DNA of 64,000 nt from an uncultured Chloroflexia bacterium (lineage in GTDB: Bacteria > Chloroflexota > Limnocylindria > Limnocylindrales > CSP1-4), in assembly GCA_963768655.1 (NCBI GenBank), contig CAVYIM010000009.1, positions 64,001 to 128,000 of the forward strand, in the 5' to 3' direction. This document shows positions 43,792-59,062 of this stretch, in pieces. The notes below the pieces were generated by a model. The model was not told the origin of the DNA, ran no database searches, and worked only from the letters and a program-made list of their open reading frames with translations. The stretch's first letter is position 1. Each line of letters begins with the position of its first letter. A program made the position numbers and the translations under genes.

Positions 43792-44148
43792 ATGACCGGC
43801 ATCTGGTACGTGCTTGGCTTGGCTGCCGCGGGGGTCGGTTTCGTATTCCTCGTCATCGGCCTGGCCTGGGTCCTTTCGCACCGCAACCGCGGTGATCGTC
43901 ACAAGGGCCTGCCGTACGAGAGCGGCATCGACACGGTCGGCGACACCTGGTCCCAATTCGGCGTTTCCTTCTACATCTACGCTCTGCTCTTCGTGGCCTT
44001 CGACGTAGAGGTCGTGTTCCTCTTCCTGTGGGCGATCGTCTTCCGAAGTCTGCTGCTGGGCGGCCTCGTGAGCATGGGCACGTTCGTGGTCGTGCTCATG
44101 CTGGGATTGGCTTACGCCTGGCGGAAGGGAGTCCTGACGTGGCGGTAG
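43792..44148 (+). CDS. nuoA: NADH-quinone oxidoreductase subunit A
   Basis: PYESGI, FYIYALLFVAFDVEVVFL, YAWRKGVLTW. Confidence 0.96.
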   Translation: MTGIWYVLGLAAAGVGFVFLVIGLAWVLSHRNRGDRHKGLPYESGIDTVGDTWSQFGVSFYIYALLFVAFDVEVVFLFLWAIVFRSLLLGGLVSMGTFVVVLMLGLAYAWRKGVLTWR

Positions 44149-44981
44149 GCGATCGAGGGCCGAAGGGAGCCAGGGCGGCGGCCTCCGGCCGGCCGGCCGG
44201 AGGCGCGGCAGCGCCACGGGTTCCGGCGGCGCCCGGGGCTTCGGCCGCGACGGGGGCTTCGGCCGCGACGGGGGCTTCGGCGGTCGGGGCCGCGGCGAAC
44301 GCGCCGGCGAAGAGCCAGCTCGCGCCCCTCGCTCCGGGCGAGCTGACCGCGCCCATCGTGGTTCGCAACACTCTCTGGCGGGCGGTCAACCCGCTGGCGT
44401 ACGACGGCGGGCGTCCGGCCGAGGCTACTCACCTGCGCGAGTTCGGTCTGACCGATGCCGGTCGGCGCGACGACGCGCGCTGGGGTGCGCTGCAGATCGT
44501 GCCGACCAAAGCGGACTACATCCTCGACCTCATCCGAGCCAACAGCCTGTGGCCGCTCCTTTCGGGCCTGGCTTGCTGCGCCTTCGAGATGATGTCGGGC
44601 GCCACCAGCAAGTTCGACATGGACCGCTGGGGCATGTTCCCGTTCCGGGCCTCGCCCCGCCAGTCGGACGTGCTCATCGTCGCCGGCACGCTCACGACAA
44701 AGATGTCCGGGCCGTTGGTCCGGTTGTGGGAGCAGATGCCGGAGCCCAAGTGGTGCGTTGCCCTCGGTGACTGCACCGTCTCGGGCGGCCGCTACAAGAG
44801 AAGCTACTCGACGGTCCAGGGCATCGACCGGGTCATGCCCGTGGATGTGTACATCCCCGGCTGCCCACCTCGTCCCGAAGGCCTCATTTACGGCATGCTC
44901 CAGCTCGGGCAGCTCGTCAAGGATCAGCGCGGGCACTGGCCCGAGCGCGAGATCGGCCCCACCGTACCGGACAAGATCTGA
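44139..44981 (+). CDS. nuoB: NADH-quinone oxidoreductase subunit B with an Ala-rich N-terminal extension
   Basis: SLWP..GLACCAFEM, RASPRQSD, QMPEPKW..GDC, DVYIPGCPPRPE. Start uncertain (GTG overlapping nuoA). Confidence 0.95.
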   Translation: MAVGDRGPKGARAAASGRPAGGAAAPRVPAAPGASAATGASAATGASAVGAAANAPAKSQLAPLAPGELTAPIVVRNTLWRAVNPLAYDGGRPAEATHLREFGLTDAGRRDDARWGALQIVPTKADYILDLIRANSLWPLLSGLACCAFEMMSGATSKFDMDRWGMFPFRASPRQSDVLIVAGTLTTKMSGPLVRLWEQMPEPKWCVALGDCTVSGGRYKRSYSTVQGIDRVMPVDVYIPGCPPRPEGLIYGMLQLGQLVKDQRGHWPEREIGPTVPDKI

Positions 44982-44984
44982 CCG

Positions 44985-45542
44985 ATGGATCGCACCCTGA
45001 AGCGCCGGCTGGAAGCGCGCCTGAGCGCGCAGATCCAGGGCCCGATTCGCCAGCGCCACGACCAGACCGAGATTCGAATCGAGGCGGGCGACGTTCCGGA
45101 CGTGCTCCGCACGCTGCACGACTCCGTCGATTTCCGCTTCGAGATCCTGGCGGACCTGGCCGGCGTCGACACGGGCCGCGGGATGCAGGTCGTGTATCAC
45201 CTCTGGAGCGAAACCAGCCCGGACTGGCTGCGCATCATCGTCGACGGAATCTCCCGCGAGGACCCGCGCTGCCCGTCGGTCACGTTCCTGTGGACCGGCG
45301 CCGAGTGGCTCGAGCGCGAGGCCTACGACATGTTCGGCATCGTGTTCGAGGGCAACCGCGACCTGCGCCGCATCTTCATGCCGCCCGACTACACGAGCTT
45401 CCCGCTCCGCAAGGATTTCCTCCTGCCCGACGACGCGGCCCGATCCCCGGGCGAGGGTGTCCGGCACATGGAGCGAACCTACGCCCCGGCCGTCCTGGCC
45501 GACGATCCGGCGGCCGGCGTCCGCCGGGCGCCGGCGAGTTGA
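44985..45542 (+). CDS. nuoC: NADH-quinone oxidoreductase subunit C
   Basis: DLAGVD, VVYHL, WLEREAYDMFGIVFEG, PLRKDF. Confidence 0.95.
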   Translation: MDRTLKRRLEARLSAQIQGPIRQRHDQTEIRIEAGDVPDVLRTLHDSVDFRFEILADLAGVDTGRGMQVVYHLWSETSPDWLRIIVDGISREDPRCPSVTFLWTGAEWLEREAYDMFGIVFEGNRDLRRIFMPPDYTSFPLRKDFLLPDDAARSPGEGVRHMERTYAPAVLADDPAAGVRRAPAS

Positions 45543-45550
45543 GGACCGAG

Positions 45551-46831
45551 ATGCCGCCTCGCCCCACCCGCCCGACGCCCCGCAAGACCCCCCGCCCGGA
45601 GGATCAGCGCCCGCCCGAGCAGCACCGCTCCGAGGACGACCCGCGCATCATGCTCGACCGCGAGATCAGCGCGGACCTGTACGAGCCGATCCCGCCCTAT
45701 CCAACTCGGACAGAGCGCGAGGCCGAGTTCTACACCCGCGGCGACGGGGAGATGTTCATCAACATCGGGCCGCACCACCCGGCCACTCACGGCGTCCTCC
45801 GTCTCGTGCTGAAGCTATCGGGCGAGCAGATAGTCGACGTCGACCCGGTCCTCGGCTATCTCCACCGCGGCGTCGAGAAGATCTGCGAGAACTCGGACTA
45901 CTACCACGTCATCGATCAGGTGGACCCGCTGGAGTACGTCAGCTCCCTGTTCCAGGAGTGGGCCGCGGTCCTCTCGTTCGAGAAGCTGATGGACGTGCAG
46001 GTGCCGCGACGGGCTGAGTACATCCGAGTCCTCTCCGGCGAGTTGCTGCGCGTAGCCAGCCACACCCTCTTCATGGGCTTCCTGGCCCTGGATCTGGGCG
46101 GTCTGACGCCGATCCTGTACAGCTTCATCGAGCGCGACGAGATCGTGGAGATGCTGGCGGCTCTCACCGGCGCGCGGATGCTCTTCAACTACTTCCGCAT
46201 CGGCGGCGTGAACGGCGACCTCAACCACGAATTCATGAGCCGCCTGGGCGACTGGATGAGCCGCGCCGCGAGGCAGACCGAAGCGAATTCCGGGCTGCTG
46301 AACGAGAACGAGATTTTCGTCCGGCGGACGCGCGGCGTCGGCGTCCTGGACCGGGCTACGGCCCTCCGCTTCGGGGTCACGGGCGGGAACCTGCGCGCTG
46401 CCGGCGTACCGTTCGACGTCCGCCGTGCCCACCCGTACAGCGTCTACCCGGAGCTCGACTTCAATATCCCGACTCGCCTGGAGGGCGACTCGCTGGCTCG
46501 CTACCTGATCCGCGTGGACGAGGTTCGCGAGTCGATCAGGATCATCGACCAGTGCCTGCACAACATGCCCGACGGGCCGGTCATGGCGAAGCTGCCACGG
46601 CTGCTCCGGCCCCGGCCCGGACGTGCCTGGGGCGCGTGCGAGGGCCCTCGCGGGATGCTCGGCGTGTACACGATCAGCGACGGCTCGGACCAGCCGTTCC
46701 GCTTCCAAATCCACGATCCGAGCTTCATGAATCTGGAGACGGTGCCCACGCTGCTGCCCGGCAACCTGCTGGCCGACACGATGACCATCGTCGCCTCGCT
46801 CGACCCGGTCCTGGGTGGGATCGACAAGTGA
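45551..46831 (+). CDS. nuoD: NADH-quinone oxidoreductase subunit D
   Basis: NIGPHHPATHGVLRL, GYLHRGVEK, RIGGV, EGPRG, SLDPVLGGIDK; no NiFe-binding CxxC motifs. Confidence 0.96.
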   Translation: MPPRPTRPTPRKTPRPEDQRPPEQHRSEDDPRIMLDREISADLYEPIPPYPTRTEREAEFYTRGDGEMFINIGPHHPATHGVLRLVLKLSGEQIVDVDPVLGYLHRGVEKICENSDYYHVIDQVDPLEYVSSLFQEWAAVLSFEKLMDVQVPRRAEYIRVLSGELLRVASHTLFMGFLALDLGGLTPILYSFIERDEIVEMLAALTGARMLFNYFRIGGVNGDLNHEFMSRLGDWMSRAARQTEANSGLLNENEIFVRRTRGVGVLDRATALRFGVTGGNLRAAGVPFDVRRAHPYSVYPELDFNIPTRLEGDSLARYLIRVDEVRESIRIIDQCLHNMPDGPVMAKLPRLLRPRPGRAWGACEGPRGMLGVYTISDGSDQPFRFQIHDPSFMNLETVPTLLPGNLLADTMTIVASLDPVLGGIDK

Positions 46832-46841
46832 GGGCCGTTCG

Positions 46842-48203
46842 ATGACCTTCGCCGCTCGGACCTGGGGCCGAATGTCCCTGACCGCCCGCCTGGCCGCGAT
46901 CCTCGTGCCGCTGGCCGTGCTGCTGGCCATAGCCACCGTCGTGGGCATCGTGTTCATCCTGCCGCCCACGATCGATTTCCTGGGGGCGAACCTGCCGCTG
47001 GTTCGGTTCGTCGTCGCGGTCGTCGGCATCCTCGTCCTGACCATCCCGACTGCGTTCGTGCTGATCTACATGGAGCTCAAAGTCATCGCCCGCATGAACC
47101 TGCGAGTCGGCCCCAACAGGATCGGACCGTGGGGCGCGGCAATGAGCCTTCTCCACGGTTTCAAGGTTCTCTCCAAGGAGGACTTCGCCCCCACCGGCGC
47201 CGATATCGCGGTCTTCACGCTGGCCCCGGTGGTCACCTTCCTGGCCAGCGTCATGACCCTGCTCGTCATCCCGTTCGCGCCCGGCATCTTCGGCCAGGAC
47301 CTCAACATCGGCGTGCTCTATTTCTTCGCCATGGGCGGTCTCGCCGTCCTTGGTCTGCTCATGGCGGGCTGGGCGAGCTTCAACAAGTACTCGCTGCTGG
47401 GCGGGCTCCGCTCAGCGGCGCAGATCGTCAGCTACGAGATTCCGCTGACCATCTCCGTCGTGGGCGTGGTCCTGCTCGCGGGCACGATGAGCATGAACCA
47501 CATCGTTCTGTCCCAGTCGGGCTCCGCGCTGGACTGGTTCGCCCTCAAGCAACCCCTCGCGGTGCTGATCTTCTTCATCGCCGCCACGGCCGAGGCCAAC
47601 CGCACCCCGTTCGACATGACCGAGGCCGACTCTGAGATCGTCGCCGGATTTGCCACTGAGTACTCGGGGATGCGCTTCGGCTTCTTCTTCTTCGCCGAGT
47701 ACGTGAACGTCTTCATCATCTCGGCCCTCATGGTGACGCTCTTCTTCGGTGGCTGGACGGCGCCGTTCAACTGGCCCTGGCCGTACAACCTGAACTGGCT
47801 CGACGCCTCGGGCATCGGCATCCTCTGGATCGGGATCGCGCTGGTCGTCCTGTTCGTTGCCACGGACATCCTCGGCGCGGCGATCTGGCTGATCGGGGGC
47901 CGAGAGTGGAGCAGCCCGGCGGCCTTCGGCCTCGGCTTCCTGATCGCAGGCGCCGGCATCACCGCCGCAGTCGGCCTGGCCTGCTTCGTCGCCTTCGGCT
48001 GGGTCCAGGGCATCTTCTGGTTCATGGCCAAGACCTACGTCTTCGTCTTCACCTTCGTCTGGATGCGAGGAACCCTGCCGCGCGTCCGGGTGGATCAGCT
48101 GATGGGCTTCGCCTGGAAATGGCTCCTGCCCGCCTCGCTCCTGAACCTGTTCGTGACGGCGGCCGCAATCATCATCCTCAACCAACCGGTGACCCCGCGA
48201 TGA
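46842..48203 (+). CDS. nuoH: NADH-quinone oxidoreductase subunit H (enlarged)
   Basis: RVGPNRIGPWG, KED, NKYSLLGGLRSAAQIVSYE, NRTPFDMTEADSEIVAGFATEYSG, RGTLPRVRVDQLM. Confidence 0.96.
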   Translation: MTFAARTWGRMSLTARLAAILVPLAVLLAIATVVGIVFILPPTIDFLGANLPLVRFVVAVVGILVLTIPTAFVLIYMELKVIARMNLRVGPNRIGPWGAAMSLLHGFKVLSKEDFAPTGADIAVFTLAPVVTFLASVMTLLVIPFAPGIFGQDLNIGVLYFFAMGGLAVLGLLMAGWASFNKYSLLGGLRSAAQIVSYEIPLTISVVGVVLLAGTMSMNHIVLSQSGSALDWFALKQPLAVLIFFIAATAEANRTPFDMTEADSEIVAGFATEYSGMRFGFFFFAEYVNVFIISALMVTLFFGGWTAPFNWPWPYNLNWLDASGIGILWIGIALVVLFVATDILGAAIWLIGGREWSSPAAFGLGFLIAGAGITAAVGLACFVAFGWVQGIFWFMAKTYVFVFTFVWMRGTLPRVRVDQLMGFAWKWLLPASLLNLFVTAAAIIILNQPVTPR

Positions 48204-49015
48204 GCTTCATCCCCGGCCTCGGCATCGCGAAGGGAATGGCGCTGACGCTGCGCCGCTTCTTCGCCCCCAAGGCCACGATCCAGTACCCCGAGACGAAGCC
48301 GGACATCGCCGTCCGCTTCCGCGGCCGGCTGCAGCTCCTGTACGATGAGTTCGGCAACCTCAAGTGCGAGACGTGCTTCCAGTGCGCCCAGGCCTGCCCG
48401 GTGGAATGCATCGACATGGGCGGCCACGACACCAAGGGCCGCTTCTACACCCACTGGGGACCGGCAGAGACTTACGGCGAGCGGCGCGAGGAGTCCGCGC
48501 TGCGGCGCTCCGGCCGGCCGGTTCCGGACGAGGCATTTGTCCATTTCGAGCCGATCGATCTGGTCGCGGTCGAGGAGATACTCGCGGCCCGCGACTACGA
48601 CCCGCGCAACATGCTGCCCATCCTCGAAGAGGTCCAGGCCGCGTACGGCTACCTGCCGATCGCCGCGATCAAGCACATCAGCCACGTAACCGGCGCCGCC
48701 TACGCCCTGGTGTATGGAACGGCGACCTACTACAGCCACCTGAGCTTCGAGCGACGGGCCCGAACGGTCGCGGTCTGCCGCTGCACGAGCTGCCTGCTCG
48801 CCGGGTCGGGACGGATCGCGAACGCGATCGGCGAGGGGCTGGGGACGAAGCTCGGCGGCCGGCCGGCCGGCGGCGTGGCGCTCGAGCAGCTGGCGGCCCA
48901 TATCCCCGGCGCGGCGTCGCCGCTCGTCACGCTGGATGGCGAGCCCCAGGCGGACGTGACCGAGACGAGCGCCGCCGCGTGGAGCCTTGCCCTGGCCGGG
49001 AAGACCGTGGCATGA
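48200..49015 (+). CDS. nuoI: Fusion of the N-terminal half of NuoI with a degenerate NuoE-like domain
   Basis: TIQYPE..RFRGR..CETCFQCAQACP (only one ferredoxin motif), then LPILEEVQAAYGYLP..VYGTATYYSHL..VCRCTSC (NuoE-like). Confidence 0.88.
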   Translation: MSFIPGLGIAKGMALTLRRFFAPKATIQYPETKPDIAVRFRGRLQLLYDEFGNLKCETCFQCAQACPVECIDMGGHDTKGRFYTHWGPAETYGERREESALRRSGRPVPDEAFVHFEPIDLVAVEEILAARDYDPRNMLPILEEVQAAYGYLPIAAIKHISHVTGAAYALVYGTATYYSHLSFERRARTVAVCRCTSCLLAGSGRIANAIGEGLGTKLGGRPAGGVALEQLAAHIPGAASPLVTLDGEPQADVTETSAAAWSLALAGKTVA

Positions 49016-50409
49016 CGACCGTGAACGTGCTTCCGACGCCGGACAAGTGGCCCCACCTGTTGCTGCCCGCGGCCTCGGGGAGTGGCGCGGCCGGTGGCAG
49101 TGGCGCGGCCGGTGGCAGTGGCGCGAATGGCGCCCCGAGCGCCGCCCCCACTGATCTCGACGCAGCCGTTGCCGCCGGTGCCTTCAAGGGTCTGACCGAG
49201 GCTATCAAGGACCTGACCGCCGGCGAGATCGTGGCGGCGCTGGCCAATTCCGGGCTGCGCGGCCGTGGCGGGGCCGGGTTCCCCACGAGCGAGAAGTGGC
49301 GTTCCTGCGCCCTCGCGCCGGCCGACCGCCGCTACGTCGTCGTCCACGCCTACCAGTCGGATCCCGCCGTCTTCGCCGATCGTGTCCTCCTGGAGCGCAA
49401 CCCCTACGCGGTGCTCGAGGGAGCGGCCATCGCCGCCGTCGCCGTGGGAGCCTCCGACGTAATCGTCGCGCTCCACGCGGACGCCACAGAGGCGATCGCC
49501 ACGCTGGAGACCTCGATCCGCGAAGCCGAGATCGCGGGCTATCTGGGTGACGATGTCCTGGGCAGCGGTCGCGACATCCACGTCGAGGTCAAGCCACTTC
49601 AGGGCGCCTACATGCTGGGTGAGGAGACGGTCCTTCTCAAGGGCATCGAGGGCCGGCGCGGCCAGCCCGAGCAGGAGCCTCCGTATCCCACAACCAGAGG
49701 CCTGTACGGCAAGCCCACTCTCGTCCACAACGCCCAGACCTTCGCCGTGGTCCCTGGGATCATCACCGGTGGCCCCGGCACCTACCCCGAGGCCGGACTC
49801 AAAGGCGGCGCCGGCACGGTGCTGGTCCAGATCTCAGGCTCGGTCGTCAATCCGGGCCTCGCCGAGGTCCCGCTCGGCACGACGATCGCCGACATCGTGG
49901 CCCTGGCCGGCGGCGTCCCCGCGCCCCACACGGTCAAGGCGTTCCTCGTCGGCGGCCCATCCGGCGGCATCCTCCCGGCCGGGGCAGGCAAGACCCCCTA
50001 CGAGTTCGAAGCCCTCGAAGCCGCCGGCGCCTGGATGGGCTCAGGGTCGATCGTCGTCGTCGACGAGCGCAGCTGTCTCGTCGACCTCGCCTCGGTGCTG
50101 ACCCGCTTCTGCGCCGACCAGGCCTGCGGCAAGACGATCCCCTGCCGGATCGGGCTGCGCCGCATGGCCGAGATCGGGACGCGCTTCTGCGAGGGTCAGC
50201 CCCGCGGCGACGAGGTCGAGCGCCTGAACGATCTGTCCGCAGACATCGTGGCCAGCCGCCTGTGCGACCACGAACGCCGCTCAACGCTGCCTCTTCTGAG
50301 CCTCGTCCGGTACTTCCGCGACGAGCTCGACGCTCACATCGTCCGTAGCACGTGCCCCGCCGGGATCTGCCAGCCGATGGCAGCCTCTCGGGCCGGGGCC
50401 GTCTCCTGA
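49012..50409 (+). CDS. nuoF: NuoF-like flavoprotein subunit, divergent
   Basis: GLRGRGGAGFP, GAYMLGEET, GGPSGG, MGSGSIVV, CGKTIPCRIG, CPAGIC. Confidence 0.88.
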   Translation: MTTVNVLPTPDKWPHLLLPAASGSGAAGGSGAAGGSGANGAPSAAPTDLDAAVAAGAFKGLTEAIKDLTAGEIVAALANSGLRGRGGAGFPTSEKWRSCALAPADRRYVVVHAYQSDPAVFADRVLLERNPYAVLEGAAIAAVAVGASDVIVALHADATEAIATLETSIREAEIAGYLGDDVLGSGRDIHVEVKPLQGAYMLGEETVLLKGIEGRRGQPEQEPPYPTTRGLYGKPTLVHNAQTFAVVPGIITGGPGTYPEAGLKGGAGTVLVQISGSVVNPGLAEVPLGTTIADIVALAGGVPAPHTVKAFLVGGPSGGILPAGAGKTPYEFEALEAAGAWMGSGSIVVVDERSCLVDLASVLTRFCADQACGKTIPCRIGLRRMAEIGTRFCEGQPRGDEVERLNDLSADIVASRLCDHERRSTLPLLSLVRYFRDELDAHIVRSTCPAGICQPMAASRAGAVS

Positions 50410-50417
50410 GGCGTCCC

Positions 50418-53198
50418 ATGCGAGACACCCATCTCCGCCCCAGCCCGAGCGCCCCGCCGGCGACACCGCCGGCCGGCAAACCCGCCCTGCCCGCCCCGCC
50501 CGCGATGCCCGCCAGCAGGCTCCCGGCGAATCCGCCGATAGTCGCGCCGGGACCCCTGCCGGCCCTGCCTGCCGCCCCGTCCGTGAAGGGCCTGCGGCCC
50601 GCCGCCAACGAGGGACCGGTGTGGAATCGCAGGGCCGGACGCCCCGACAGCCGCCCGGACGCAATGGCGCCGCGCGACACGGTTACGCCACTCGACGACT
50701 CGCCTGCCGAGCGTCTGCTCACGACCCAGGCTCCGCAGCGGCCGCTGTCGACGTCCACAATCAAGCTCACGATCGACGACCGCGAGGTCACCGGGACCGA
50801 GGGGCAAACGATCCTCGAGGTCTGCCGGGCCAACGGCACCGACGTCCCCACGCTCTGCTACGAGCCCAAGCTGCCCGGCTTCGGCGCCTGCCGGATGTGC
50901 GTCGTCGAGGTCGACGGCGACGATCATCCGACGATCTCGTGCGCCCGCGAAGCGGCGGCCGGCATGGTCGTCCGAACCCAGACCGACGAGGTTCGCCGGC
51001 TGCGCCGGACCAACCTGGAGCTGATCTTCAGCGACCACAACGCCTATTGCCTGCCGCCCTGCCAGAACAAGTGCCCGAGCCACATCGACATCCCGGGCTT
51101 CCTGAAGGCCAATGCCGAGGGCAAGTTCCGCGAGTCGGCGCGCATCTTCAAGCGCACCATCCCGTTCCCTTCGATCCTGGGCCGCGTCTGCCCGGCTCCG
51201 TGCGAGGAGCACTGCCGCCGCGACGAGGTGGACGAGGCCATCGCCATCCGGGATAGCCATCGCTACGCCGGCGACATCGTGCTGGCCGCGCAGAAGGACG
51301 GCATCGAACCGCCTCTGCCGTTCGAGACACAGCCCCGGACCGGCAAGCGCGTCGCGATCGTCGGCTCCGGACCGGCCGGCATGGCGGCGGCCTACTACCT
51401 GCAGCTCTCCGGCCACGACACGACCGTCTTCGAGCGCGACCCCGAGCCCGGTGGAATGCTCCGCTACGGCATCCCGGAGTACCGCCTGCCCAAGAAGGAC
51501 GTTCTCGAGCCCGAGTACGAGGCGGTCTGGCGCCTCGGCGCGAAGCTGGAGGTCAACCAGGCCCTGGGTCGCGACTTCAGCCTGGACGACCTGCGCGCGC
51601 GGGGCTTCGACGCCACGATCGTCGCCACCGGCTGCTACGACACCAACAAGCTCGGCGTCGAGAACGAGAACGCAGTCGGGGTCATCGACGGCCTGGAGTA
51701 CCTCAAGATCGCCACTCTGGGCCTGCCGTATCCGGGCCACGCCGGCAGCCGCGTCGTCGTCATCGGCGGCGGCTTCACCGCCATGGACTGCATGCGCACC
51801 TCCGTCCGCCAGGGCGCGAAGGAGGTCACCCTCGTCTACCGCCGTGACATGAAAGACATGCCGGCCGCCAGCGAGGTCCACGAGGGGCTCGAGGAAGGGG
51901 CTCGAGCCATCTTCCAGGCCGGCCCGACGAGGGTCATCGTCAACGCCAAGAATCGCGTCACCGGCGTCGAGTTCATCCGCATGCGCCCCGGCGCGCCGGA
52001 CGCCTCCGGCCGCCGCCGCCCCGAGCCCGCGCCCGGGACCGAGTTCGTGATCAAGTGCGACCGCGTCCTGCTCGCCATCGGCCAGGGGCCCGATTTGTCG
52101 TGGATAGGGCCCGGCAACGAAGGCATCGAGGCGGCCCGGTACAGGCTCAAGGCCGACGCGGTCACGTTCGAGACGGGCCGGCCCGGCGTGTTCGGCACCG
52201 GCGACGTGCGCATCGGGGCCGCGACCGTGGTCCAGGCCATCGCCGAGGGACGGCGCTGCGCCTACGCCGTGGACGCGTTCTTGCGCGGCACGGACCTCTC
52301 CGAGCTGCGCTCACGCGAGACCCTCGCCGAGCCCGAGCTCAAGTTCCTCTCGATCACGCCCTACACCGACGAGCCCAAGGAACCCCGTCACCGTCTGGCG
52401 GCAATGCCGGCGGAGGAGCGCAACAAGAGCTACGTCGAGTACGAGATCCCCTATACCCAGACCGAGGTCATGGCCGAGTCGAGCCGCTGCCTGCAGTGCA
52501 CCTGCGAGGCCATCGGCTACTGCGACCTGCGCAACCTGGGCCTGGAGTACGGGACCACGCTCGAAACGCTGGAGCCTCGGCACAACGAAGGCGCCGGCTA
52601 TCGCAGCGTGACGGAGAACCGCTTCACCGGCGCCAACCACGACTACATCCGCGACGACAGCCACGCCTTCATCCTGCGCGAGCCGTCGCGCTGCATCGAC
52701 TGCGGCCGCTGCGCCGCGGTCTGCGCCGACGTCGTCGGCGCCGCCTGCTACGACTTCATGCGCATCGGCTTCGACACGCTCGTGACGACGCCGCTCGACA
52801 TGAGCCTCAACGACACGCCGTGCGTCTCCTGCGGTCGCTGCGCCGAGACGTGCCCTACCGGCGCGCTCATGCTCAAGCCGCGCGTCTTGGAGAAGTACGA
52901 CGTCGACGAGAGCCGCTGCATCCTGTGCGGCATCTGCGTGGATGCCTGCCCGTACGACGCGCTGCGCGGCGGGCCCGACAACGAGCTGGCCCACACCGAC
53001 CGGTCCGGGCCGATGATCGACCTGATCGGCCTGGCCGCCATGGCCGGCGAAACCGAAGTGACCTACATCCAGCGCGAACGAGACTGGCTCGCCCACGCCG
53101 TGGCCGACGGTCGACTCGCGAACCCCGGGGCGGAGCTGCCGGCGCTGCCGCCCGCGCTCGCCACTCCCGGCGACGGAAATGGAGCCGAGCGCCAGTGA
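50418..53198 (+). CDS. NuoG/HydA-like Fe-S domain + GltD-like FAD/NAD(P)H oxidoreductase + 2x[4Fe-4S] + C-terminal half of NuoI
   Basis: TLCY..GACRMCVV..ISC (2Fe-2S); PCQNKCP, GRVCPAPCEEHC, GSGPAG, GGMLRYGIP, GGGFTAMD, VYRR (GltD); three CxxCxxCxxxC motifs, the last in a NuoI-like context. Start uncertain (50418 or 50664). Confidence 0.9.
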   Translation: MRDTHLRPSPSAPPATPPAGKPALPAPPAMPASRLPANPPIVAPGPLPALPAAPSVKGLRPAANEGPVWNRRAGRPDSRPDAMAPRDTVTPLDDSPAERLLTTQAPQRPLSTSTIKLTIDDREVTGTEGQTILEVCRANGTDVPTLCYEPKLPGFGACRMCVVEVDGDDHPTISCAREAAAGMVVRTQTDEVRRLRRTNLELIFSDHNAYCLPPCQNKCPSHIDIPGFLKANAEGKFRESARIFKRTIPFPSILGRVCPAPCEEHCRRDEVDEAIAIRDSHRYAGDIVLAAQKDGIEPPLPFETQPRTGKRVAIVGSGPAGMAAAYYLQLSGHDTTVFERDPEPGGMLRYGIPEYRLPKKDVLEPEYEAVWRLGAKLEVNQALGRDFSLDDLRARGFDATIVATGCYDTNKLGVENENAVGVIDGLEYLKIATLGLPYPGHAGSRVVVIGGGFTAMDCMRTSVRQGAKEVTLVYRRDMKDMPAASEVHEGLEEGARAIFQAGPTRVIVNAKNRVTGVEFIRMRPGAPDASGRRRPEPAPGTEFVIKCDRVLLAIGQGPDLSWIGPGNEGIEAARYRLKADAVTFETGRPGVFGTGDVRIGAATVVQAIAEGRRCAYAVDAFLRGTDLSELRSRETLAEPELKFLSITPYTDEPKEPRHRLAAMPAEERNKSYVEYEIPYTQTEVMAESSRCLQCTCEAIGYCDLRNLGLEYGTTLETLEPRHNEGAGYRSVTENRFTGANHDYIRDDSHAFILREPSRCIDCGRCAAVCADVVGAACYDFMRIGFDTLVTTPLDMSLNDTPCVSCGRCAETCPTGALMLKPRVLEKYDVDESRCILCGICVDACPYDALRGGPDNELAHTDRSGPMIDLIGLAAMAGETEVTYIQRERDWLAHAVADGRLANPGAELPALPPALATPGDGNGAERQ

Positions 53199-53223
53199 TG
53201 CATCATGAGGAGGGCAGGCAGGC

Positions 53224-53772
53224 ATGCCGATAGGTCAGACTCTCCCGTTCACGGCGGTCCGCTGGGACGACGTCCTCTTCGTCGTGCTGGCGATCATGCT
53301 CCTCGGCTCGGCCCTGCTGGTCGTGACCATGCGCGACATCATTCGCTGCGGTCTGGCGATGATCGCCTCGTTCGCCTCGCTGGCCGGCATCTACGTCCTG
53401 CTGGGCAATCCCCTCATCGCGGCCACCCAGGTCCTGGTCTACATCGGCGCGATCAGCATCCTGGTCCTGTTCGCGATCATGCTGACCGAGACCAAGAACG
53501 CCCCCACCCGGCTGGTCTTCCAGACCCAGGCCTGGGTCGGAGCCGCCGCCGCGGTGGTGATCGGCGCCATCATCTCCGGCACGGTCCTGACGACCACGTG
53601 GCCGTCCGGCGGTGCCGTGGTCTGGACCGCCACGTCGGACATCGCCACGATGCTCTTCGGCCAGTACGTTCTGCCGTTCGAGGCCGTGAGCGTGTTGCTC
53701 ACCGCCGCCGTCGTGGGTGGCGTGCTGCTGGCCAGACGCGAGCCGAACGCCGGCAAGGAGGATCGGTCGTGA
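53224..53772 (+). CDS. nuoJ: NADH-quinone oxidoreductase subunit J
   Basis: QVLVYIGAISILVLFAIML, YVLPFEAVSVLL. Confidence 0.95.
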   Translation: MPIGQTLPFTAVRWDDVLFVVLAIMLLGSALLVVTMRDIIRCGLAMIASFASLAGIYVLLGNPLIAATQVLVYIGAISILVLFAIMLTETKNAPTRLVFQTQAWVGAAAAVVIGAIISGTVLTTTWPSGGAVVWTATSDIATMLFGQYVLPFEAVSVLLTAAVVGGVLLARREPNAGKEDRS

Positions 53773-54080
53773 GCAATTCTCTCGACTCCTACCTGGTCCT
53801 GTCGGGCCTGCTCTTCGCCATCGGCACCTTCGGCTTCCTGGCCCGCCGCAACGCGATCAGCATGCTGATGTCCATCGAGCTGATGCTCAACGCGGTCAAC
53901 CTCACGATCATCGCCTTCGGGGCCTTCGAGAAGGGGCTCCACGTCCAGGCCTCGGTCATAGCCTTGATCGTCATCGCCGTGGCGGCGGCCGAAGCGACGG
54001 TCGGCCTGGCGATCGTCATCGCGATCTACCGGAACAAGAAGACGCCGCTCGTCGACGAGTACGACTCCATGAGCCAGTGA
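53769..54080 (+). CDS. nuoK: NADH-quinone oxidoreductase subunit K
   Basis: RRNAISMLMSIELMLNAVNL, AAAEATVGLAIV; GTG start overlapping the nuoJ stop. Confidence 0.96.
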   Translation: MSNSLDSYLVLSGLLFAIGTFGFLARRNAISMLMSIELMLNAVNLTIIAFGAFEKGLHVQASVIALIVIAVAAAEATVGLAIVIAIYRNKKTPLVDEYDSMSQ

Positions 54081-54087
54081 GCCCACG

Positions 54088-56055
54088 ATGACCGCGCTCC
54101 TCCCGCTCATCCCGATCATGCCGCTCGGCGGATTCGTACTGACCGGCCTGCTCGGCCGCCGCTACCCCGAGGACGCCCACCGCATCGCCGTCTGGGCCGT
54201 CGTGGCGTCGTGGGTCGTGGCCTCGATCGTGGCCGTCATGGCCCTGCTGCATGCCTCTCCGTTCGGGACGGCGGGCGCCGGCATCACGCTCTGGACCTGG
54301 ATCCCGGCCTACGTCCCGGGCGGCTTCAACGCCAGCATGGGTCTCTTCGTCGACCCCCTGACCGCCTGCCTGCTCATCGTGGTCACGACGATCGGCATGC
54401 TGGTGCACATCTACTCGATCGGCTACATGGCCCATGACCCTGGTCGGTGGCGCTTCTTCGCCTACCTGAACCTGTTCATGTTCTCGATGCTGATGCTGGT
54501 CCTGGCCGACAACTTCCTGCTCGTCTTCGCCGGCTGGGAGCTGGTGGGCCTGTGCAGCTACCTCTTGATCGGCTTCTGGTACCCGCGCCGGTCCGCCGCC
54601 GTTGCGGCCAAGAAGGCCTTCCTGGTCAACCGCGTCGGCGACATGGGCTTCGCGCTGGGGATCATGGCCATCTGGACCCAGCTCGGCACGCTCAACATGC
54701 AGGCCGTCTTCGCCAGGTTCGGCAGCGTCCCCCACGACTGGCAGATCGCGATCGCGCTGCTCATCTTCTGCGGCGCCGTGGGCAAGAGCGCCCAGTTCCC
54801 GCTCCACGTCTGGCTGCCGGACGCGATGGAGGGCCCCACTCCGGTCTCGGCCCTGATCCATGCCGCGACGATGGTCAACGCCGGCGTCTACCTCGTCGCC
54901 CGCTGCAACCCGATCTTCGGCGCAGCCCCCGAGGTCATGGTCGTCGTCGCCGCGATCGGCATCTTCACCGCTATCCTGGCCGCCTCGATCGCCTTCACCC
55001 AGACCGACATCAAGCGCGTCCTGGCCTACTCGACGCTTTCCCAGCTCGGCTACATGTTCGCCTCCCTGGGCGTCGGGGCGTGGACTGCGGCGATCTTCCA
55101 CCTCATGAGCCACGGCTTCTTCAAGGGCCTCCTCTTCCTGGACTCGGGCTCCGTGATCCACTCCGTCGGCGGCGAGCAGGACATGCGCAAGATGGGCGGC
55201 CTGGCCCGCAAGATCCCGATCACCTACGCCACGATGCTCGTCGGCGCGGTGGCGATCTCCGGCGTTCCGCCCCTGGCCGGCTTCTTCTCGAAGGACGAGA
55301 TCCTGGGCGGGGCATTCAAGAGCGGCTTCCTGTGGGTCTGGGCCATCGGCTTCGTGGTCGCCGGCATGACCGCCTTCTACATGTTCCGGCTGATGGGCAT
55401 GACTTTCTGGGGCCCGAGCCACGTCGATCCCGAGGTCGAGCACCACGTCCACGAGTCGCCCCGGTCGATGACCGGGCCGCTCGTCGTGCTCGCCATTCCG
55501 GCCGCGCTGCTCGGCCTGGCGATCGGCTTCCCGCCGGAGACGGGCCTGCTCCACCAGTGGCTCGCGCCGGTCTTCGAGGGCACGATCGCCGCCAGCGGCC
55601 ACACGGAGGCCGCCTACAACTTCTTCGGCATCGACGGCGCGCTGGCGATCGGGACGACGGCCCTGGTCGCCGTGGCGATCGTGCTGGCGTGGCGGCTCTT
55701 CGGCGTCGAGATCCCGGCCCTGGGCCTGCGGGCCCAGCCCCGTCCCGAGCGCGTGCGCGAGATCAGCACCCGGCGCGGCCTGTCGCTCCTCTACAAAGGC
55801 TCGTTCAACAAGTGGTGGTTCGACGACCTCAACAACAAGCTCTTCGTGGAGTGGGGCGGCAAACTCGCCGCCGCCGCCTTCTGGTTCGACCGCACGATCG
55901 TCGACGGCACCGTCAACGGCATCGGCGCCGTCACCACCGCCGCCGGTCGGGGACTGCGCCGCGTCCAGACGGGCCGGGTCCAGAACTACGCGCTCGGCAT
56001 CGCCCTCGGCCTGATCGTCATGGCCGCCGGCTATCTATACCTCGCGGTCAGGTAG
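54088..56055 (+). CDS. nuoL: NADH-quinone oxidoreductase subunit L
   Basis: GKSAQFPLHVWLPDAMEGPTPVSALIHAATMV, DIKRVLAYSTLSQLGYM, QTGRVQNY. Confidence 0.97.
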   Translation: MTALLPLIPIMPLGGFVLTGLLGRRYPEDAHRIAVWAVVASWVVASIVAVMALLHASPFGTAGAGITLWTWIPAYVPGGFNASMGLFVDPLTACLLIVVTTIGMLVHIYSIGYMAHDPGRWRFFAYLNLFMFSMLMLVLADNFLLVFAGWELVGLCSYLLIGFWYPRRSAAVAAKKAFLVNRVGDMGFALGIMAIWTQLGTLNMQAVFARFGSVPHDWQIAIALLIFCGAVGKSAQFPLHVWLPDAMEGPTPVSALIHAATMVNAGVYLVARCNPIFGAAPEVMVVVAAIGIFTAILAASIAFTQTDIKRVLAYSTLSQLGYMFASLGVGAWTAAIFHLMSHGFFKGLLFLDSGSVIHSVGGEQDMRKMGGLARKIPITYATMLVGAVAISGVPPLAGFFSKDEILGGAFKSGFLWVWAIGFVVAGMTAFYMFRLMGMTFWGPSHVDPEVEHHVHESPRSMTGPLVVLAIPAALLGLAIGFPPETGLLHQWLAPVFEGTIAASGHTEAAYNFFGIDGALAIGTTALVAVAIVLAWRLFGVEIPALGLRAQPRPERVREISTRRGLSLLYKGSFNKWWFDDLNNKLFVEWGGKLAAAAFWFDRTIVDGTVNGIGAVTTAAGRGLRRVQTGRVQNYALGIALGLIVMAAGYLYLAVR

Positions 56056-56065
56056 GAGGGGAACG

Positions 56066-57589
56066 ATGTCCGGCCTGCCGCTCCTGAGCCTGATCACCTT
56101 CCTGCCGCTCCTTGGAGCGGTGATCATCGCGGTCCTGCCCTCGCGGAACCTCGATCTCATCCGACGCGTGGCCCTCGGGACGTCGCTGCTGGCCTGGGTC
56201 CTGTCGCTGCTCCTGCTCGGCATCTTCGTCCGAGGCCAAGACGGCTTCCAGTTCAAGGAAGCTGCCGACTGGATCCCGAGCTTCGGCATCCAGTACAAGC
56301 TGGGCGTCGACGGCCTGAGCGTGCTGATGGTCGTCCTGACGACGACGCTCAGCTGGATCAGCATCCTGGCCAGCTTCGGGCCGATCAAGTTCCGGGTGAA
56401 GGAGTACATGATCTCCTTCCTGGTTCTCGAGGTCGGCATGATCGGGGTCTTCGTCGCCCTGGACCTCTTCCTCTTCTACATCTTCTGGGAGATCGTCCTG
56501 GTCCCGATGTACTTGATCATCGGCATCTGGGGCGGCGCGAACCGCATCTACGCCACGATGAAGTTCGTTCTGTACACGCTCGTCGGGTCGCTGCTGATGC
56601 TCGTCGCGATCCTGGCCACGGCCTTCACCTACCAGGCCGCGACCGGGTCCTGGGCCGGCGCATTCGACTACGAGAAGCTGCAGGCGTTCGCCGCCGCGGG
56701 CTCCTTCGGCCAGAACTTCCAGCTGCTGGCCTTCCTGGCGCTGTTCCTCGCCTTCGCCATCAAGGTCCCGATGTTCCCGTTCCACACCTGGCTGCCCGAC
56801 GCCCACACCGAGGCCCCGACCGCGGGCTCGGTCATCCTGGCGGGCGTCCTCCTCAAGCTCGGCGCGTACGGCCTGATCCGCTTCGCCGTGCCTCTCTACC
56901 CGTACGCGGCCCACACGTTCGCCTGGCCGATCATCGTCCTGAGCGTGATCGCGATCGTGTACGGCGCGATCGTCTCGATCGTCCAGCCGGACCTCAAGCG
57001 CCTGATCGCCTACAGCTCGGTCAGCCACATGGGCTTCGTGACGCTGGGCATCTTCGTCTTCACGGCCACCGCCCTCCAGGGCGCGATCCTGCAGATGATC
57101 AACCACGGCCTGATCACGGGCGGGCTCTTCCTCCTGGTCGGTGTCGTCTACGAGCGCACCCACGACCGATCCATCGCCAAGATGGGCGGCCTGGCGGCCA
57201 CGATGCCGCTGTGGTCGACGGTCTTCGGCTTCTTCATCCTGGCCTCGGCCGGGCTGCCGGGGCTGTCCGGCTTCGTCGGTGAGTTCCTGGTCTTCGTGGG
57301 GTCCTTCACCTACGCGCCCGGAATCGTCGTCGCCTCGATCATCGTCATGGTCCTGGTGGCCACGTACTTGCTGTGGATGTTCCAGCGCGTCGCCTTCGGC
57401 GCCGTGTCCGATTTCCTGGCCGGCCTGGGCGACCATCTGACGGACATGAGCCGGGTCGAGTTCGCCACTCTCGCCCCGCTGGCCGCCCTGATCGTCGTGT
57501 TCGGGCTCTTCCCGAGCCTGATCCTCGACTTCCTGAACGGTCCGGTCCAGCACTTCCTCCTGGCCGCTGGCACAGCGGTCGGCGGCTGA
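56066..57589 (+). CDS. nuoM: NADH-quinone oxidoreductase subunit M
   Basis: GVDGLS, IKVPMFPFHTWLPDAHTEAPTAGSV, DLKRLIAYSSVSHMG, GLPGLSGFVGEF. Confidence 0.97.
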   Translation: MSGLPLLSLITFLPLLGAVIIAVLPSRNLDLIRRVALGTSLLAWVLSLLLLGIFVRGQDGFQFKEAADWIPSFGIQYKLGVDGLSVLMVVLTTTLSWISILASFGPIKFRVKEYMISFLVLEVGMIGVFVALDLFLFYIFWEIVLVPMYLIIGIWGGANRIYATMKFVLYTLVGSLLMLVAILATAFTYQAATGSWAGAFDYEKLQAFAAAGSFGQNFQLLAFLALFLAFAIKVPMFPFHTWLPDAHTEAPTAGSVILAGVLLKLGAYGLIRFAVPLYPYAAHTFAWPIIVLSVIAIVYGAIVSIVQPDLKRLIAYSSVSHMGFVTLGIFVFTATALQGAILQMINHGLITGGLFLLVGVVYERTHDRSIAKMGGLAATMPLWSTVFGFFILASAGLPGLSGFVGEFLVFVGSFTYAPGIVVASIIVMVLVATYLLWMFQRVAFGAVSDFLAGLGDHLTDMSRVEFATLAPLAALIVVFGLFPSLILDFLNGPVQHFLLAAGTAVGG

Positions 57590-57601: not shown

Positions 57602-59062
57602 ATGAACTGGTCAGACCTGGGCTCCCTGGCGCCGGTCATCTGGGCCGTCCTCACGGCGGCGGCGGTCCTGCTCGTGGACTTCATCGCGCCCGGGCGGCGC
57701 GGCCCGGCCATCGCCGTGGCGCTCGCCGGGCTGGCCGTGGCGGCGGCCGTGGTCCTGTCGCTCGCCGGCCACACCGAGACCGCCTTCGGGGGCGCGTACG
57801 TCGTGGACGGCCTGACGGCATTCCTCGACATCCTGTTCGTGGCCATCGCGGCCCTGACGATCCTCTTCGCCAACGACTACCTGGAGCCGCGCGGCCTGCC
57901 GATTGCCGAGTTCGCTGCCGTCCTGGTCTTCGCCATCACCGGGGCGATGCTGATCGCCGGCTCCGCCGACCTGCTCCTCCTCTTCGTTGCCCTGGAGCTG
58001 ATGGTCCTGCCCGGCTACCTGCTCGCCGGCTACGCTCGGAACGACCCCTACTCGACCGAGGGCGCGATCAAATACTTCCTCCTCGGCTCCTTCTCGAGCG
58101 CGATCCTGCTCTTCGGCCTGGCCTACGTGTGGGGCATCACGGGCAGCACACGAGTGGACGTCGTGGCCGCGGCCCTGGCCCAGGCTGCGGCGACCGGCTC
58201 GATCGCCCCCGGCCTGGCCATGGGTCTGGCCTTCATGACGGCGGGCGTGGCCTTCAAGATGGCCGCGGTGCCGTTCCACTACTGGACTCCGGACGCGTAT
58301 CAAGGCTCGCCGACGCCCGTCACGGCGTACCTGTCCGTCGGTCCGAAGATAGGCGCCTTCGCCATCGCCCTGCGGCTGTTCGTGGCCGCCCTGGGCCCGC
58401 TCAAGGCCGACTGGCTGCCGATCGTGATCATCCTGGCTGCCCTGACGATGACGCTGGGCAACCTGGTGGCGATCACCCAGGACAACGTCAAGCGGATGCT
58501 GGCGTACTCCTCGATCGCCCATACCGGCTACATCCTGGTCGGGCTGGCGGCCTACGCCGGCGGCCAGCACAGCGGCATCTCGGCGATCCTCTTCTACGGC
58601 GCCGCCTACACCTTCATGAACATGGGCGCGTTCGCCGTGGTCACGGCCCTGCAGCGCCGGCCAGGAGTGACGAGCCAGATCTCCACGTTCGCCGGCCTGG
58701 GGCGGCGCGATCCGTGGCTGGGGGCGCTGATGGCCCTGTTCCTGCTGTCGCTGACGGGCATCCCGCCGCTCGCCGGCTTCTGGGCCAAGGCCTACGTAAT
58801 CGTCGCGGCGGTCCAGGCCGGCGGCTGGCTGACGGCGCTGGCGGTGCTGGCGATGCTCAACGCGGCCGCGGCGGCGTTCTACTACCTGCGCGTGGTCGTG
58901 TACATGTACATGCGCGAGCCCGCCGAGGATGCCGCGCCGCTGTCGCCGGGGCTGCTCTTCCGAGTCGGTCTGGCCGTGACCGGCATCGCCACGCTCGTCT
59001 TCGGGCTCTTCCCGGCGATCCTGACCGCCGCCAGCAGCGCCGCCGACGTGCTGAAGGGCTAG
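57602..59062 (+). CDS. nuoN: NADH-quinone oxidoreductase subunit N
   Basis: EGAIKYFLLG, FKMAAVPFHYWTPDAYQGSP, NVKRMLAYSSIAHTGY, GIPPLAGF, YYLRVV. Confidence 0.97.
   Translation: MNWSDLGSLAPVIWAVLTAAAVLLVDFIAPGRRGPAIAVALAGLAVAAAVVLSLAGHTETAFGGAYVVDGLTAFLDILFVAIAALTILFANDYLEPRGLPIAEFAAVLVFAITGAMLIAGSADLLLLFVALELMVLPGYLLAGYARNDPYSTEGAIKYFLLGSFSSAILLFGLAYVWGITGSTRVDVVAAALAQAAATGSIAPGLAMGLAFMTAGVAFKMAAVPFHYWTPDAYQGSPTPVTAYLSVGPKIGAFAIALRLFVAALGPLKADWLPIVIILAALTMTLGNLVAITQDNVKRMLAYSSIAHTGYILVGLAAYAGGQHSGISAILFYGAAYTFMNMGAFAVVTALQRRPGVTSQISTFAGLGRRDPWLGALMALFLLSLTGIPPLAGFWAKAYVIVAAVQAGGWLTALAVLAMLNAAAAAFYYLRVVVYMYMREPAEDAAPLSPGLLFRVGLAVTGIATLVFGLFPAILTAASSAADVLKG

Follow-up and report, generated by a model that had tools for sequence, protein, structure and literature searches.

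Respiratory complex I and the soluble Nfn-Bfu transhydrogenases are the described enzymes closest to the system reported here, which centres on one gene in a 64,000-nucleotide stretch of DNA from an uncultured Chloroflexia bacterium of the Limnocylindria (contig CAVYIM010000009.1, positions 64,001 to 128,000; "the window" below is this whole stretch, with a G+C content of about 70%). Complex I is by textbook account NADH-specific, a single addition is assumed for its N-module, and in the canonical enzyme the His-ligated cluster N5 passes electrons to N6a. The gene in question, on the forward strand at 50664..53198, lies in a complex I (nuo) operon and encodes a protein that we term G'I''. We consider it likely that this protein belongs to a variant respiratory complex I as the largest subunit of its peripheral arm, and that the input module of this enzyme derives from a soluble NADPH/NADH transhydrogenase of the NfnABC/StnABC (Bfu) type. 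Engineered Escherichia coli complex I (NuoF Glu183 variants) reportedly oxidises NADPH through a mutated specificity of the NuoF site; the shared idea is a proton-pumping NADPH:quinone oxidoreductase, for which a separate flavin adenine dinucleotide (FAD) domain would here supply the NADPH site naturally.

Structures of NfnABC and StnABC have been reported (PMC11829005, PMC12018979, PMC10482914) and, according to the accessible portions of two of these papers (PMC11829005, PMC10482914), NfnA and StnC oxidise NADPH at a homologous FAD, from which electrons follow the clusters A7-A6-A3-A2-A1. The full soluble path is given there as NADPH-FAD-A7-A6-A3-A2-A1-B1-FMN (flavin mononucleotide), with A4/A5 forming a dead-end branch off A2, and the enzymes as reversible transhydrogenases that make NADPH in vivo. 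The same portions describe a Lys ligand, K170, on the FAD-proximal cluster of both NfnA and StnC, which is reported as strictly conserved among StnC proteins and the replacement of which by Ala or Cys cripples Stn. They further assign the formation of oligomers in Stn to an Fdh-like domain (PMC10482914) and define the minimal flavobicluster of Bfu enzymes as B1-FMN-C1 (PMC11829005). The insertion of a GltD domain into a His-cluster motif is likewise known from NsoC/StnC, with the motifs named in the available text (PMC7483475). An input module of Bfu descent that sits mid-operon among nuo genes has been described as Nuo-Bfu, a predicted 14-subunit, proton-pumping and menaquinone-linked enzyme of Deferribacteres, Proteobacteria, Planctomycetes and Nitrospirae (Schut et al. 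2022, PMC9304861); it differs from the present locus in lacking the GltD/NADPH domain, and its main text names neither NuoI nor Actinobacteria, such operons possibly being listed in the supplements.

The features of the gene under study and of the stretch before it are as follows.

50418..50663 (+) Pro/Ala-rich stretch of 246 nt, either a spacer that is not translated or a disordered extension of the N-terminus
50664..53198 (+) G'I'' subunit, the gene under study, 844 amino acids (aa) counted from 50664
50757..50993 (+) 2Fe-2S domain, equivalent to N1b/A1 (Pfam Fer2_4), its four Cys invariant
51036..51077 (+) HxxxCxxxCxxxCP (HNAYCLPPCQNKCP), part one of the interrupted His-cluster motif, here run together with the cluster motif of GltD (motif and 9bov_A alignment)
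51048..52250 (+) GltD/NfnL-like module comprising a 2x[4Fe-4S] domain, an FAD site and an NAD(P)H site (Pfam Fer4_20 and Pyr_redox_2; 9bov_A alignment)
51363-51380 (+) FAD site GSGPAG within this module
51765-51845 (+) NAD(P)H site GGGFTAMD...VYRR within this module
52488..52523 (+) CxxCxCxxxxxC (CLQCTCEAIGYC), part two of the interrupted His-cluster motif (motif and 9bov_A alignment)
52692..52856 (+) HydA/FdhA-type 2x[4Fe-4S] domain (CIDCGRCAAVC ... CVSCGRCAETCP), equivalent to A2 and A4 (9bov_A alignment; Pfam Fer4_Nqo3)
52881..53198 (+) C-terminal half of NuoI (CILCGICVDACP and tail; TIGR01971 match)

The preliminary description of this DNA had recognized an N-terminal 2Fe-2S domain followed by a His-cluster motif that is interrupted by a complete GltD-like domain and then resumed, and both the Pfam matches and the motif positions agree with it, the motifs GSGPAG, GGGFTAMD and VYRR all being found. 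Two numberings of the protein are in use, an 844-aa form from the ATG at 50664 and a 926-aa form from the ATG at 50418; in the latter, Pfam places Fer2_4 at residues 114-189 (E 1.5e-20), the first 17 of the 40 profile positions, and only these, of NADH-G_4Fe-4S_3 (PF10588) at residues 196-212 (21.1 bits, cut-off 27), Fer4_20 at residues 211-289 (E 4.7e-18), Pyr_redox_2 at residues 311-611 (E 5.7e-24), a weak Fer4_Nqo3 match at residues 752-817 and a 4Fe-4S dicluster at residues 795-850. In this hidden Markov model scan Fer4_20 and Pyr_redox_2 together amount to a GltD-type FAD/NAD(P)H domain, and the GltD-type model TIGR01318 scores 308 bits over residues 213-622, under its cut-off of 483. The string SDHNAYC occupies 51030-51050 with its His at 51036, and RCLQCTCEAIGYCDL occupies 52485-52529, the two halves of the His-cluster (N5-type) motif being separated by about 480 residues. 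The protein had also been said to lack both the molybdopterin-like C-terminal domain of NuoG and an H-cluster, and indeed neither a molybdopterin nor an Fe-hydrogenase family is among the 25 Pfam families matched at E <= 0.001.

The gene had been ended at 52870, just past the second ferredoxin motif, but the reading frame continues for 109 codons to a stop codon at 53196-53198. Downstream of 52870 lies a third CxxCxxCxxxCP motif (CILCGICVDACP), beyond which the protein extends by 82 residues. The last 100 or so residues of G'I'' are the C-terminal half of NuoI, and its N-terminal counterpart forms a fusion with a NuoE-like protein encoded two genes upstream (I'E). The NuoI model TIGR01971 (121 positions, cut-off 113.05) is matched over positions 1-66 by residues 12-78 of I'E (51.6 bits) and over positions 71-112 by residues 822-863 of G'I'' in the 926-aa numbering (47.1 bits). 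The two halves thus cover NuoI/Nqo9/NDUFS8 with one CxxCxxCxxxCP motif each but, unlike it, are carried by separate polypeptides, either one as a fusion with a further subunit. A NuoI scan of the whole assembly returned the two halves as its best matches (53.4 and 39.4 bits), with other ferredoxin motifs at 21-28 bits; nothing in the assembly (3.37 Mb, 9 contigs, 88.6% complete) attains the NuoI cut-off, and no canonical NuoG was found in it. The operon order is nuoA-B-C-D-H-(I'E)-F-(G'I'')-JK-L-M-N; it contains no separate nuoE, nuoG or nuoI, and a three-gene cassette of NuoE-like, NuoF-like and NfnA-like proteins sits within the split nuoI. The direct wiring to the quinone module that had been suggested for the subunit is borne out by its NuoI-like C-terminus, a closer tie than had been claimed. 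The remaining genes of the operon, in which nuoA, B, C, D, H, K, L, M and N, a Q-module and membrane-arm set, are matched by Pfam or NCBIfam models, are these.

43792..44148 (+) nuoA (Pfam Oxidored_q4, E 2.9e-32)
44028..44981 (+) nuoB, start unsettled, conserved part from about 44478 (Pfam Oxidored_q6, E 1.6e-25, at residues 183-292 of the open reading frame)
44985..45542 (+) nuoC (Pfam Complex1_30kDa, E 1.5e-36)
45650..46831 (+) nuoD, start unsettled within the open reading frame 45290..46831 (Pfam Complex1_49kDa, E 6.7e-82)
46815..48203 (+) nuoH, 462 aa, longer than usual (Pfam NADHdh, E 6.8e-105; NCBIfam NuoH models)
48200..49015 (+) I'E fusion, 271 aa (TIGR01971, and Pfam 2Fe-2S_thioredx, E 2.7e-19), with an ATGA overlap with the nuoH stop
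about 48233-48433 (+) N-terminal half of NuoI in I'E, with one CxxCxxCxxxCP motif (TIGR01971)
about 48572-48973 (+) NuoE/BfuC-like thioredoxin-like domain of I'E, its 2Fe-2S site missing the second Cys pair (aligned with 7p5h_C, 8oh5_A and 9bov_C)
49012..50409 (+) NuoF/BfuB-like flavoprotein, 465 aa (TIGR01959, 343 bits, under the cut-off of 558.65)
53205..54080 (+) fused nuoJ-nuoK open reading frame, 291 aa, with NuoK at residues 191-289
54088..56055 (+) nuoL (Pfam Proton_antipo_M, _N and _C)
56066..57589 (+) nuoM (Pfam Proton_antipo_M)
57602..59062 (+) nuoN (Pfam Proton_antipo_M)

Start and stop codons overlap as ATGA at the I'E/F junction as well as at the nuoH/I'E junction. The N-terminal 190 residues of the JK open reading frame match no Pfam family at E <= 0.01, and their identity as NuoJ is presumed. 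The nuoB open reading frame opens with about 150 low-complexity Ala/Gly/Pro residues (44028-44477), including a repeated GASAAT, with a codon-position G+C of 0.81/0.72/0.83 that is similar to that of the spacer before G'I''. In NuoH the Pfam match falls into two stretches with extra sequence past about residue 350, the NuoH models having 325-433 positions. NuoD scores 305.5 bits against Nqo4 (2fug_4) and 301 bits against cyanobacterial NdhH, values that do not separate an 11-subunit from a 14-subunit enzyme, and we dropped them as a discriminator.

The beginning of G'I'' probably lies further downstream than had been described. The position given previously, 50418, is the first ATG past the end of nuoF (50409), in a frame that is open over 50352..53198 (+), but conservation with relatives starts only at the ATG at 50664. 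The codon-position G+C in frame is 0.78/0.73/0.86 in the preceding 246 nt (50418-50663) versus 0.67/0.49/0.93 in the conserved part of the gene. Because of these differences in conservation and composition a start at 50418 is doubtful and the ATG at 50664 is the probable one. Among 57 related loci the distance from the nuoF stop to the conserved start is 186-314 nt in 18 and at most 88 nt in 34, with 4 intermediate values and 1 artefact. Read depth is lower over 50371-50704, which we did not take as a finding. Where relatives are named in source annotations, they appear as "FAD-dependent oxidoreductase" (metagenome-assembled genomes of Candidatus Limnocylindrales or Chloroflexota) or as "formate dehydrogenase major subunit".

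The layout of the cassette and both fusions are conserved throughout one bacterial class and recur in another phylum. At least 791 stretches in a species-representative genome collection encode a relative of G'I''; 69 Limnocylindria-type loci were kept, and all 69 show the order D-H-I'E-F-G'I''-JK-L as far as their flanks reach. The 120 close homologues listed are 77-95% identical to G'I'' and all have the same C-terminus. A more distant set, which its sources assign to Thermoleophilia, has about 825 aa and 41-47% (roughly 44%) identity to G'I''; relatives of one of its members, P0131, are encoded by 370 metagenome-contig stretches, and the order A-B-C-D-H-I'E-F-G'I''-J/K-L-M-N is found, again as far as flanks reach, in 28/28 Thermoleophilia-type loci longer than 12 kb. 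In loci having both matches, I' and E share a single frame in 53/54 of the Limnocylindria type and 28/28 of the Thermoleophilia type; in six further Thermoleophilia-type loci tblastn gave the E part only, I' being present in the same frame in the 3/3 that were read. The sole Limnocylindria-type locus (1/54) with I' and E out of frame, L034 5938-6540, may reflect a frameshift or an assembly error. Median identities to the window proteins across the Limnocylindria loci are 85.7% for B, 77.2% for G'I'' and 75.9% for D; G'I'' is thus one of the best-conserved subunits, and F, with 54.5%, has the lowest value in the operon. Metatranscriptome contigs (four libraries from four studies) cover 24-28 of 30 bins and, being mostly 90-95% alike, come from relatives; they indicate presence only, with DNA carry-over possible. 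Sequencing runs contained at most 0.14 of the sampled words in any run.

For residue-level comparison we aligned 120 Limnocylindria-type, 107 Thermoleophilia-type and 108 soluble-type (at least 1000 aa) sequences. The Cys and His residues of the 2Fe-2S site, HxxxCxxxCxxxCP, GRVCPxPCExxC, CxxCxCxxxxxC and the three ferredoxin motifs are invariant in 120/120 and 107/107 of the two Nuo-type groups, and hence the motif pattern is not due to chance. The third of the ferredoxin motifs, CxxCxxCxxxCP, is confined to the Nuo-type groups and has no counterpart in the 108 soluble-type sequences. The column of K170 is Lys in 105/108 soluble-type sequences and His in 119/120 Limnocylindria-type and 107/107 Thermoleophilia-type ones, with His199 as the occupant of this ligand position of the FAD-proximal cluster in the window's protein. 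The FAD motif GxGxxG and the GGGxxAMD...YRR motif are found in 120/120 Limnocylindria-type sequences. In an unrooted LG+G4 quick tree of 83 rows, for which 14/120 Limnocylindria-type, 18/107 Thermoleophilia-type and 50/108 soluble-type sequences were sampled at random, the Limnocylindria (15 rows) and the Thermoleophilia (18 rows) each lie on one side of a branch with a Shimodaira-Hasegawa-like approximate likelihood ratio (SH-aLRT) support of 100. A further branch with an SH-aLRT of 100 sets the Nuo-type rows together with P0247 against the 49 other soluble-type rows. P0247, a protein of 1049 aa from the representative library, also has His in the K170 column, a NuoI-like third ferredoxin motif and a TPP_enzyme_C end (E 8.5e-20), and may represent the same adaptor coupling an NfnA-like module to a 2-oxoacid oxidoreductase.

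The preliminary description had compared G'I'' with the A subunit of soluble Nfn/Bfu enzymes, and its best solved relatives do belong there: the closest chain is 9bov_A (E 2.2e-161, target residues 33-762 against chain residues 4-699), followed by 9n5u_A ("NfnA") and 8oh5_C. It is 36-47% identical to long representatives of the NfnA/StnC type and scores 532 bits with NF009454 over residues 113-767, under the cut-off of 916. With NfnA/StnC/NsoC it shares: 1) the N-terminal 2Fe-2S domain; 2) HxxxCxxxCxxxCP; 3) the GltD-like 2x[4Fe-4S]/FAD/NADPH module; 4) CxxCxCxxxxxC and 5) the dicluster domain; in addition the Arg near the FAD of StnC (R239) is kept. It differs from these proteins in lacking the Fdh-like C-terminal domain and A5, in place of which it has the NuoI half, in its length of 844 aa versus 963-1178 aa in the solved chains, in the His that replaces the Lys ligand K170 of StnC and in the position of its gene in a nuo operon. 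With NuoG/Nqo3/NDUFS1 it has in common the setting in a complex I operon, next to the gene of a NuoF homologue, and the combination of 2Fe-2S and ferredoxin-like domains, whereas the split N5 motif, a second cluster in the ferredoxin-like domain, the flavin and nucleotide site and the missing molybdopterin-like domain set it apart. The NuoG model TIGR01973 (606 positions) is matched at positions 1-126 and 116-212 with 92.5 bits against a cut-off of 470.05. By these comparisons G'I'' is neither a NuoG as defined by the curated model nor a full NfnA/StnC, and looks like an Nfn-Bfu A subunit grafted onto NuoI.

This likeness extends to the partner proteins. The NuoF-like protein scores 339 bits with 9bov_B and 336-338 bits with HydB/StnB chains, against 244-266 bits with the NuoF of complex I (8e9g_F 266, 2fug_1 244), and the NuoE-like domain is closest to HydC, StnA and NfnC chains (7p5h_C, 8oh5_A, 9bov_C). 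The earlier claim that a GltD/Nfn-like protein has replaced NuoG therefore stands as far as the NuoG slot goes, which holds an NfnA/StnC-type protein, but understates the extent of the replacement, as the NuoE- and NuoF-like proteins are Bfu-like too. In the window's F the NADEGDPG loop reads HAYQSDPA, the second Cys of the N3/B1 motif is Thr, and Pfam detects no C-terminal ferredoxin (Fer4) domain in its 465 aa. Across Limnocylindria-type F proteins the first Asp of NADEGDPG is Tyr in 53/53, the second N3 Cys is Thr or Ser in 52/53, and a new Cys lies five residues upstream of the first Cys in 53/53; in the E proteins the second N1a Cys pair is absent in 53/53 and the first pair is kept in 16/53, the window included. 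The Thermoleophilia-type F has canonical NADEGDPGAF, CGEET and ESCGKCVPC motifs and, at 529 aa, a C-terminal 2x[4Fe-4S] domain, and the E of this type has four Cys. These partners make up a full Bfu-like core, and in the relatives of this type the NADH and NADPH sites and a ferredoxin-type domain look intact; the C-terminal 2x[4Fe-4S] domain in B and the C1 cluster in C, which characterize the Bfu core, are present in these relatives and absent from the window. The same genome also encodes a HydABC-type locus (G000:C4, L159 5209-10329, minus strand) with a second NuoE/NuoF-like pair, namely a 549-aa NuoF-like open reading frame and one with a NuoE-like domain, next to a 666-aa [FeFe]-hydrogenase-like protein in which Fe_hyd_lg_C (E 4.2e-91) and Fe_hyd_SSU occur together with a 2Fe-2S domain and a His-cluster motif of the NuoG type that is intact.

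In the enzyme that we propose the two NuoI halves would re-associate around N6a/N6b and thereby bolt the input module to NuoB/C/D. In a ferredoxin fold of the 2x[4Fe-4S] kind the four Cys of each motif are divided between the clusters, three ligating one and the last ligating its neighbour, so both NuoI clusters would bridge two polypeptides. The GltD-like FAD would be reduced by NADPH, and electrons would run along FAD-A7(His)-A6-A3-A2-A4-N6a/b-N2-menaquinone and thereby power proton pumping; the exit would be the A2-A4 branch, which leads nowhere in the soluble enzymes, and the flavin of the F subunit would join via B1-A1-A2. A wire through A2-A4-N6a/b would be the simplest, because the NuoI half replaces A5 and its domain about 20 residues past the A4 motif, and the canonical N5-to-N6a junction is probably rewired, since the His-cluster here abuts the inserted GltD module. 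A prediction of the complex of G'I'' residues 650-844, I'E residues 1-100 and four 4Fe-4S clusters scored 0.40, the best of 3 controls scoring 0.00, with a partner pLDDT (predicted local distance difference test) of at least 52 and a run-to-run contact agreement of at least 75%; we regard this result as weak and do not count it as evidence. The mark it attained is reached by 116/157 solved complexes and 2/215 mismatched pairs, and at scores of 0.60 or below by 18/157 and both of the mismatches, and as NuoI has been solved as one chain a pass could come from likeness. An evolutionary reading, which we put forward tentatively and hold to fall somewhat short of probable, is that an 11-subunit ancestor (A-B-C-D-H-I-J-K-L-M-N) gained an input head in a second, independent event, by capture of a soluble NfnABC-type transhydrogenase inside nuoI, yielding a proton-pumping NADPH:menaquinone oxidoreductase that would use the A2-A4 exit instead of the N5-to-N6a junction and share N6a/N6b between polypeptides.

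The weakest step of this proposal concerns the donor. In the Limnocylindria lineage we take NADPH to be a genuine donor and perhaps the chief one, because its site never varies there and F has been remodelled; specificity for NADPH over NADH is suggested by conservation of the YRR motif and by homology to the NADPH-using 9bov_A and 9n5u_A. Several observations weigh against this. Motifs and homology at 41-46% identity are the basis of this assignment, and the wider GltD/NfnL family has NADH-using members. In 10/107 Thermoleophilia-type sequences, forming the clade of P0131 (P0131, P0273-P0277, P0279, P0280, P0283 and P0310), the GGG...YRR motif is lost, the second site being degenerate (GDGFAAAE, no YRR), with the FAD motif and all cluster ligands kept, so that the GltD domain may persist without a pyridine-nucleotide site. 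The Limnocylindria-type F keeps GRGGAGFP (its Gly residues in 48-53 of 53) and GEET (53/53) and retains three or four cluster Cys, and the Tyr substituted in its loop never varies; it is remodelled, not decayed, and may still oxidise NADH. An AlphaFold2 model of the 844-aa form, made with 46 sequences, has a mean pLDDT of only 63.5, the GltD module being confident and residues 612-803 and 821-844 falling below 50, so that it lends the proposed cluster path into NuoI no structural backing. The genome further holds a PntB, the beta subunit of a proton-translocating transhydrogenase (573 bits, G000:C9:197923-199323, minus strand, locus L160), so NADPH and NADH would be interconvertible without the complex I variant; the absence of a transhydrogenase, tried as a functional argument, was accordingly dropped. 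If NADH at the NuoF-like FMN site were the physiological donor, as in canonical complex I, the GltD-like domain could be a secondary inlet, a regulatory redox sensor or, in the main, a structural and electron-relay relic. The retained F motifs and the degenerate P0131 clade speak for such an arrangement; set against them are the FAD and GGG...YRR motifs without exception in the Limnocylindria-type sequences, the higher median identity of G'I'' than of F, the rewritten NADEGDPG loop at the FMN and the loss of N1a, and we judge it unlikely.

The direction of flow might also be outward, NADP+ being reduced either with electrons that the proton-motive force drives backwards from quinol or by a built-in NADH-to-NADP+ transhydrogenase acting through the shared Fe-S chain. 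The reversibility and NADPH production of the soluble relatives, as set out in the available text of the two studies (PMC11829005, PMC10482914), and the presence of two nucleotide sites on one cluster chain are in keeping with this, but PntB is already in the genome and the sequence indicates no direction; we think it decidedly unlikely. The Bfu descent of the cassette, together with the 529-aa F with its C-terminal 2x[4Fe-4S] domain and the four-Cys E domain of the Thermoleophilia type, might suggest a complex I that bifurcates or confurcates with ferredoxin and NAD(P)H, as has been proposed for Nuo-Bfu. In the Limnocylindria lineage, however, B1-FMN-C1 cannot form as in Bfu, given the missing second Cys pair of C1/N1a, the swapped B1/N3 ligand and the end of F without a ferredoxin domain; because both the C1 cluster and the B ferredoxin domain are missing there we consider Bfu-type bifurcation very improbable. 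That the cassette is a soluble Nfn-like enzyme which merely resides in the nuo operon, with complex I working without it, would accord with its soluble nearest relatives, but both halves of the only NuoI of the genome are fused to cassette proteins, these fusions are conserved in two phyla, and the Fdh-like domain, to which oligomer formation in Stn is ascribed in the available text (PMC10482914), is absent here; this we regard as exceedingly improbable. The earlier interpretation is supported as regards architecture and wiring, NADPH use being a putative trait.

The GltD-interrupted His-cluster motif is already in print for soluble enzymes, and the architecture itself is therefore known; what appears to be new is the setting, an Nfn-type cassette in a complex I operon together with a split NuoI. 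A search of full-text literature, with subscription-only papers outside its scope, found no description of a GltD/Nfn-type subunit in a complex I, nor of a NuoI in two parts, and the accessible portions of PMC12018979 and PMC3144371 make no mention of either. If the proposal is true, it would reveal a second route of module capture, in which an Fe-S subunit was split to act as a covalent adaptor on both sides, and would provide a natural test case for the rewiring of the input chain. Annotation pipelines would score genomes of this kind as lacking NuoE, F, G and I. The lineages concerned are Limnocylindria and Thermoleophilia of soil, peat and freshwater, which are abundant and uncultured, and in them the anabolic NADPH pool would be linked directly to respiration and the proton-motive force.

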